A stretch of DNA of 64,000 nt from the NCBI RefSeq assembly GCF_003334385.1, contig NZ_QOWN01000003.1; one strand, 5' to 3'. Under the pieces are notes generated by a model. It did not search any database, was not told the origin of the DNA, and saw only the letters and a list, made by a program, of their open reading frames with translations. Positions 42,642 through 42,920 of this stretch are shown in pieces. The DNA is from Escherichia coli (GTDB lineage: Bacteria; Pseudomonadota; Gammaproteobacteria; Enterobacterales; Enterobacteriaceae). The first letter of the stretch is position 1. The number at the start of each line of letters is the position of its first letter. The translations under genes were made by a program, and so were the position numbers.

Positions 42642-42749
42642 TCAGCCCCAAATCATTGCTGCCCAACGTAGCAACAACATAGCGCCACAGATTGCCAGTA
42701 GCACCACCACCATCTTCCAGTGTTTTTTATCAAAGCGTTTAGTCGGCAT
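42642..42749 (-). CDS. yniD: Small membrane protein (35 aa)
   Basis: MPTKRFDKKHWKMVVVLLAICGAMLLLRWAAMIWG, embedded in a longer 72-aa ORF (42642..42860); start assignment uncertain. Confidence 0.6.
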   Translation of the reverse strand: MPTKRFDKKHWKMVVVLLAICGAMLLLRWAAMIWG

Positions 42750-42920
42750 ACCAGTGTCCTGCATATCTCTTGTGCGTGATAACGGAGTGTAACAAAAGGG
42801 ACAGGCATCAAGGGATTTTTTGTTATTACAGCCGTCGGGTGGCGTTGTGCACATGGTCACTGTTTCTGCGTTTTATGAAAAAAATAAAATTATGTATCGA
42901 TATATATCGTAAATAGCTGG

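Follow-up and report, generated by a model that had tools for sequence, protein, structure and literature searches.

The window analysed here, a 64,000-nucleotide stretch of Escherichia coli DNA, carries the small-protein gene yniD on its minus strand, in the gene order thrS – arpB/espL1 – yniD – ydiY – pfkB that is also found in K-12. The window and MG1655 agree at every base between the arpB end and the ydiY end, with a window coordinate equal to 1847914 minus the K-12 version 3 coordinate; the window is thus MG1655 in sequence at this locus, and K-12 data apply to it directly. The MG1655 counterpart of the gene, b4535 (1805165..1805272), has the arpB pseudogene on one side and ydiY and pfkB on the other. 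The yniD codons form the last part of a 72-codon open reading frame, which an earlier note had described as bearing a Cys-containing N-terminal part followed by the 35-aa yniD peptide. The ORF listing of the window contains the frame exactly as described, and the naming of its C-terminal part was correct, the last 35 codons being 100% identical to YniD (WP_001142445.1 / b4535). The features on which the following analysis draws are, in order of coordinate:

42598..42622, no strand assigned: hairpin between the convergent yniD and ydiY genes, a terminator-like site on the plus strand

42642..42749, minus strand: yniD coding sequence, 35 aa plus stop, by annotation, NCBIfam match, codon periodicity and hydropathy

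42642..42860, minus strand: the 72-aa ORF, taken as a mechanical reading frame and not a gene product, the gene being its last 35 codons only

42750..42806, minus strand: putative ancestral yniD promoter core and 5′UTR, equal to codons 19–37 (ACPFCYTPLSRTRDMQDTG), by homology to strains E69 and IHE3034

42757..42760, minus strand: Shine-Dalgarno sequence AGGA, 7 nt before the yniD ATG, by anti-SD duplex energy

42762..42764, minus strand: in-frame ATG at codon 33, in the 5′UTR and overlapping the Shine-Dalgarno sequence; the 40-aa form that it would start is probably not used

42777, minus strand: yniD transcription start site (TSS) with a 28-nt 5′UTR, falling in codon 28 of the 72-aa ORF (Kim et al. 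2012, PMC3415461)

42786..42794, minus strand: putative extended −10 element TGTTACACT (TGn + TACACT), the same DNA as codons C23-Y24-T25

42807..42860, minus strand: right flank of the espL1/arpB island, equal to codons 1–18 (MTMCTTPPDGCNNKKSLD) and including the GTG, the codon-3 ATG, Cys4 and Cys11

yniD is already known, and its curated 35-aa annotation is confirmed here. Every RefSeq E. coli record inspected carries a 108-nt gene annotated as ‘small membrane protein YniD’, WP_001142445.1, of 35 aa only, and a megablast search with the region returned a match in 5,417 of 5,426 complete E. coli genomes. The NCBIfam equivalog model NF041491, ‘small membrane protein YniD’, scored 82.9 bits (cutoff 40; E 7.6e-24); its profile positions 1–34 of 34 aligned to residues 39–72 of the 72-aa ORF only. 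Relative to the YniD family (b4535; NF041491, Pfam PF28032), the 35-aa gene is the same in protein and in context, with no difference; the 37 codons upstream, in contrast, lie outside the family model and outside every curated annotation. The protein accession in the MG1655 record is YP_588455.2, the version number indicating that the RefSeq protein record was revised once. A passage of a review (PMC12529367) mentions that mass spectrometry detected YniD in M9 minimal-medium cultures. In the supplement of an acid-stress Ribo-seq study, which does not bear on start sites, yniD (1805165-1805272) is entered as a ‘previously known sORF’ and shows no significant change.

In the 35-aa protein a basic N-terminal segment, MPTKRFDKKHWK, precedes a single hydrophobic helix, MVVVLLAICGAMLLLRWAAMIWG, with Kyte-Doolittle means of ~2.0–2.3 for 19-residue windows within residues 49–70 of the 72-aa frame. 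The conserved KHWKM...LRWAAMIWG motif is present, as judged from the alignment and from 80 enterobacterial loci. By its sequence, YniD is predicted to be a single-pass inner-membrane protein of N-in topology: the positive-inside rule would place the net-positive N-terminus in the cytoplasm, and the 23-residue helix would end at the periplasmic face. The most likely role of YniD, judged from other small membrane proteins that have been characterised in enterobacteria, is to bind a larger membrane protein and modulate it.

The 72-aa ORF begins with a GTG at 42860 and is translated as MTMCTTPPDGCNNKKSLDACPFCYTPLSRTRDMQDTGMPTKRFDKKHWKMVVVLLAICGAMLLLRWAAMIWG, which divides into an upstream extension, MTMCTTPPDGCNNKKSLDACPFCYTPLSRTRDMQDTG, and the 35-aa YniD, MPTKRFDKKHWKMVVVLLAICGAMLLLRWAAMIWG. 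A second potential start, an ATG, stands at codon 3 (42854), and four Cys codons start at 42851, 42830, 42803 and 42794, spaced as C4-x6-C11-x8-C20-x2-C23 with a single CxxC knuckle (CPFC). This arrangement could be read as a lineage-specific 72-aa YniD proteoform (or 70-aa, from the codon-3 ATG) that carries a Cys-rich cytoplasmic metal-binding segment and is made from read-through or from an unmapped upstream promoter, a reading that we consider very improbable. The four Cys, one CxxC among them, and a weak Pfam zf-like match speak for it. The openness and the Cys count of the upstream stretch are not beyond chance: among dinucleotide-preserving shuffles of the 123 nt upstream, all 41 in-frame codons were stop-free in 15%, and at least four Cys appeared in the last 37 codons in 8%.

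A zinc ribbon requires two CxxC (or CPxCG-like) knuckles, that is, four zinc ligands. The extension resembles such domains in holding four Cys within 37 residues, one pair of them as CPFC, but it differs from them in having one knuckle, in Cys residues that are not conserved even within E. coli, and in that the Cys codons are off the mapped mRNA. No zinc-finger or zinc-ribbon profile matched the extension significantly, the best Pfam match being zf-like PF04071 (E 0.07, 13.5 bits), and the 37-aa extension searched alone against NCBIfam gave no match. With one knuckle, variable Cys and no significant profile match, the possible zinc-ribbon-like segment of the earlier note is not supported; the stretch is better described as DNA of the putative promoter read as codons.

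Where transcription of yniD begins bears directly on the choice of start codon. Table S1 of Kim et al. (2012, PLoS Genet, PMC3415461), a TSS map obtained by TEX-treated 5′RACE-seq of mid-exponential MG1655, contains an entry for yniD at NC_000913.2 1803161 (+), with b4535 at 1803189..1803296, a UTR of 28 and a promoter string ending ...TTTTGTTACACTCCGTTATCA / ...CCCTTTTGTTACACTCCGTTATCA. The entry represents one dataset and one growth condition, with a value of 29 in the presumed read-count column relative to a dataset mean of 107.8. Mapped onto the window at 42777, the TSS lies downstream of the GTG, the codon-3 ATG and all four Cys codons, which are therefore off the mapped transcript; that both upstream starts are 5′ of the TSS argues against the 72-aa proteoform. 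The proteoform is favored by the interval further upstream, between espL1/arpB and yniD, in which no minus-strand intrinsic terminator was detected, so that read-through transcripts containing the GTG could arise.

Examination of the DNA preceding the TSS revealed a TGn directly 5′ of a TAnnnT hexamer, in TGTTACACT at 42794..42786. The gap between hexamer and TSS is 8 nt (the TSS is the ninth position after the hexamer), which is within the 6–10 nt range that was applied; gaps of 6–7 nt are the commonest, and 8 nt is near the upper limit of what is usual. No −35 element was recognisable at 16–18 nt upstream of the −10 hexamer. About 50 of 58 loci, drawn from Escherichia, Citrobacter, Enterobacter, Lelliottia and Kluyvera, have a TGnTA[C/G/A]ACT-like motif 37–45 nt before the ATG, with diverged flanks; one locus has TGATAGAAT. 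In an alignment of Escherichia and Citrobacter, TTTGTTACACT forms a single invariant island in otherwise diverged upstream DNA. We infer that the conserved TGTTACACT is an extended −10 promoter without a recognisable −35 and that it drives yniD transcription. It shares with the extended −10 (TGn) promoters of the sigma-70 family a TG one base 5′ of TAnnnT, the lack of a −35, a mapped TSS downstream and a fixed distance to the ATG across genera, and it departs from them in its hexamer-to-TSS gap of 8 nt instead of the commonest 6–7. The TAYACT form resembles the −10 preferred by sigma-S. Codons F22-C23-Y24-T25 spell TTTTGTTACACT, in which the TG of the putative extended −10 is part of Cys23; these codons being promoter bases, the ‘CPFC’ knuckle would be promoter DNA.

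Other searches for promoters and transcript ends yielded little of bearing. A sigma-70 consensus scan found no minus-strand promoter; the scan requires a −35 and hence misses extended −10 promoters such as that proposed for yniD. Readings of the upstream DNA, by eye, as sigma-32 or sigma-E promoters were rejected for misfits in spacing and consensus, and genomic-SELEX sigma-factor peaks labelled ‘thrS/yniD’ were set aside, as they lie 1.4–1.9 kb upstream, in arpB, and not at the yniD promoter. The accessible portions of the Cappable-seq, SMRT-Cappable-seq, INRI-seq and PIRT-seq supplements hold no yniD entry or nearby coordinate, to which little weight is given, as these tables are possibly incomplete.

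The ribosome-binding signals are likewise unevenly distributed among the candidate starts. The anti-SD duplex energy is −4.7 kcal/mol at the yniD ATG, as compared to +0.2 at the GTG and −0.2 at the codon-3 ATG; by these energies neither upstream start possesses a Shine-Dalgarno sequence, their values being no better than those of about three-quarters of the start-like triplets in the window, and this too counts against the 72-aa proteoform. In-frame alternative starts that give N-terminal proteoforms have reportedly been mapped in E. coli by retapamulin Ribo-seq (Meydan et al., in 2019). yniD is formally like those genes in possessing two or more upstream in-frame start codons, but its upstream starts differ in being without Shine-Dalgarno, conservation or transcript support. 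A 40-aa form (MQDTG-MPTKR...), initiated at the codon-33 ATG (42764), can also be envisaged, and we regard its use as highly doubtful. This ATG is in frame and on the mapped mRNA, 13 nt from the 5′ end, within an unstructured leader (z = +1.38 for the TSS to +35, a weaker fold than in shuffles). It overlaps, however, the Shine-Dalgarno sequence of the downstream start and has no properly spaced one of its own, the sole upstream purine run, AAGAG, ending 2 nt before it (duplex −2.9 kcal/mol). The codon is ACG in E69 (L007) and in MOD1-EC7003 (L009) and is missing in other genera, and the family model begins at the MPT start.

To place the upstream codons in a wider context, one genome per species was scanned, which furnished 80 loci from Escherichia, Citrobacter, Enterobacter, Kluyvera, Lelliottia, Rahnella, Pantoea and others; 59 loci with a full-length, ATG-initiated core entered the analysis of the upstream frame. 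An in-frame stop was present at most 37 codons upstream in 51 of these 59 loci and at most 12 codons upstream in 36, and 34 of the 59 had no upstream in-frame ATG, GTG or TTG. A possible extension of at least 20 aa was found at nine of the 59 loci; the nine are unrelated to each other and to that of E. coli, and contain 0–2 Cys. For 58 unique loci anchored on the ATG, column information was ~0.1 bit at −120 to −13, 1.0–1.3 bits at the GGA of the Shine-Dalgarno sequence, and 1.1–1.8 bits, with 3-nt (third-position) periodicity, inside the 35 codons. Information rises only at the Shine-Dalgarno sequence, and conservation thus begins at the ribosome-binding site of the 35-aa start.

Protein-level comparison gave the same picture. 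Relatives retrieved with the 72-aa query share the MPT...IWG core only, and their upstream parts differ completely; the E. albertii extension reads ...KQKSLYVNAFCYTSLSNANEKRNND, with one Cys kept, and in other genera yniD is preceded by unrelated sequence or by stops. Conservation of the upstream extension had been named in the earlier note as a test that could refute the longer form; when it was run, sequence, frame and start codon all proved unconserved outside E. coli. Longer forms do exist in some automated annotations, namely a 42-aa partial ‘transmembrane anchor protein’ starting MTMCTT (P0005) and 63-aa E. albertii proteins (P0003, P0004), and that some pipelines annotate them is a point for the 72-aa proteoform.

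The upstream stretch might instead be a separate element, such as a regulatory RNA with structure or a leader peptide with a regulatory role, a proposal to which we give next to no credence. The segment 42750..42806 is nearly invariant at the DNA level within E. coli, as such an element would be, but near-invariance is expected at this degree of divergence. Rfam has no match in 42400-43100 except a chance snoRNA on the other strand (E 0.87), and the leader folds worse than shuffles. Across genera, only TGnTAnACT and the Shine-Dalgarno sequence are kept, each at a set distance from the ATG, as expected of a promoter and a ribosome-binding site. A promoter core of this kind (TGnTAYACT plus Shine-Dalgarno at fixed spacing), common to several enterobacterial genera, would provide a handle on the regulation of an uncharacterised small membrane protein.

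The survey also brought up variants of the locus. The Rahnella loci (L062-L067) have yniD without TGnTAnACT; the gene starts ~20 nt after the stop of a same-strand upstream ORF and is preceded by a strong GGAGG, and by this spacing and GGAGG it is probably operonic there. The Pantoea homologue (L068-L086, Pantoea/Erwinia) appears to start at a GTG (VAKK/VTKY...KHWKM) and not at ATG-Pro, and the ATG-based parsing mis-set those starts. At L007, L010, L054, L058 and L061, which are island-free Escherichia and some Citrobacter, a different in-frame stretch of 47–58 codons is open upstream of yniD, with some amino-acid similarity between genera (…QSDNQRAIYDVNQFTGALPSLLH…). Because that stretch overlaps, on the opposite strand, the promoter/operator of thrS, conservation of the thrS leader DNA and not coding is the most likely source of the similarity. 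In addition, a ATAAATCAAT-like block is conserved in island-free lineages, ~30 nt 5′ of the −10 element.

Polymorphism within E. coli was queried in 13 genomes that bear the island, supplemented by three genomes with a disrupted extension. In each of the 13 island-junction genomes the frame that starts at the GTG is uninterrupted, which favors the 72-aa proteoform. Against this, the extension has 12 segregating sites among the 13 genomes, distributed 6/4/2 over codon positions 1/2/3, and 10 of the 12 are amino-acid changing (T2I, M3R/G, C4R, D9N, G10D, S16T, C20F, C20R, P26S); nine of the 12 fall in codons 1–18. Cys4 and Cys20 are lost in different strains, with C4R in PCN033, C20F in strain 405 and C20R in an O111:H8 strain, and the codon-3 ATG is limited to K-12/B-type sequence, being AGG or GGG elsewhere. 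In the same 13 genomes the 35-codon core has one segregating site, at a third position and synonymous. The pattern fits noncoding DNA beside a constrained gene; within E. coli the extension evolves free of protein-level constraint.

The origin of the upstream codons becomes clear from genomes in which the neighborhood of yniD differs. In E69 (L007), thrS and yniD are divergent neighbors and espL1 is absent; by BLAST, the homology of the locus to the window stops at 42806 near yniD and resumes at 45293 towards thrS. The island boundaries are thus at ~42806/42807 and ~45292/45293, and ~2.5 kb stand in place of 193 bp (L007:1252-1444) between thrS and yniD. As the homology to E69 ends at 42806, codons 1–18 are island flank and codons 19–37 are native promoter and leader; codons 1–18 are absent from E69 and from Citrobacter. 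The same point is marked in IHE3034 (L088), where an IS1 end abuts GCCTGTCCC... at the position of 42806 and all downstream sequence is unchanged; the IS1 brings an in-frame TAA, and no in-frame start lies between this TAA and the codon-33 ATG. Escherichia sp. MOD1-EC7003 (L009) has the flank with the GTG changed to CTG, a 1-nt indel and an in-frame TAA. Despite the disrupted extension, E69, IHE3034 and MOD1-EC7003 all keep a 100% identical YniD, and the disruption of the extension in these three and in E. albertii, with YniD unchanged, is a further argument against the 72-aa proteoform.

Taken together, a model for the 72-codon frame emerges. A horizontally acquired espL1/arpB island was inserted between thrS and yniD, its right edge supplying 42807-42860; the frame is composed of island edge, ancestral promoter core, 5′UTR and yniD, and its Cys-rich peptide is accidental. 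The right junction lies ~12 nt upstream of the TG of the putative extended −10 and ~15 nt from the hexamer; any ancestral promoter or regulatory DNA that stood further upstream of yniD was therefore removed by the island. We conclude with high confidence that the locus is the known 35-aa small-protein gene yniD, starting at the ATG at 42749, and that the 111 nt upstream are open by chance and noncoding. The choice of start, described as unclear in the earlier note, is settled in favor of this ATG, since the TSS, the Shine-Dalgarno sequence, conservation and polymorphism all stand against the long form. The locus would offer a clean example of an extended −10 element read as ‘CxxC’, and of an island junction that creates a spurious N-terminal extension, one that some pipelines annotate.

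It is only barely conceivable that, in island-bearing E. coli, read-through or condition-specific transcription yields a small amount of a newly arisen 70–72-aa YniD with a Cys-containing cytoplasmic head. If true, this protein would possess a young N-terminal extension created by the insertion of an island beside a promoter; its single CxxC knuckle, relative to the two of a zinc ribbon, and the chance level at which shuffles reproduce the open frame and the Cys count weigh against it. The 35-aa gene with an accidental upstream frame is the reading retained here.

Several observations concern the sequences that border yniD. The upstream neighbor arpB/espL1 (42921..44820, minus strand) is a homologue of ankyrin-repeat type III effectors; it is a frameshifted pseudogene in the window, with ORFs at 44347..44820 and 42921..44336, as in K-12 and T7Express. 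Some strains, O157:H7 and PCN033 among them, have an intact espL1, and many others show further decay or a partial deletion of it; in IHE3034 (L088 748..1500) the IS1 deleted the gene. Fixation of an IS2 insertion in the arpB/yniD intergenic region during long-term stationary-phase evolution is reported in a section of PMC7858067, and the arpB/yniD interval seems to be a recurrent target of IS elements. On the other side of the gene, the hairpin at 42598..42622 is GC-rich, with a minus-strand fold of −13.1 kcal/mol (z = −2.56) and a T-run on the plus strand, and is followed by AGAUAAUUUU / AUAAUUUU on the minus strand; by these sequence features it is likely a bidirectional terminator.
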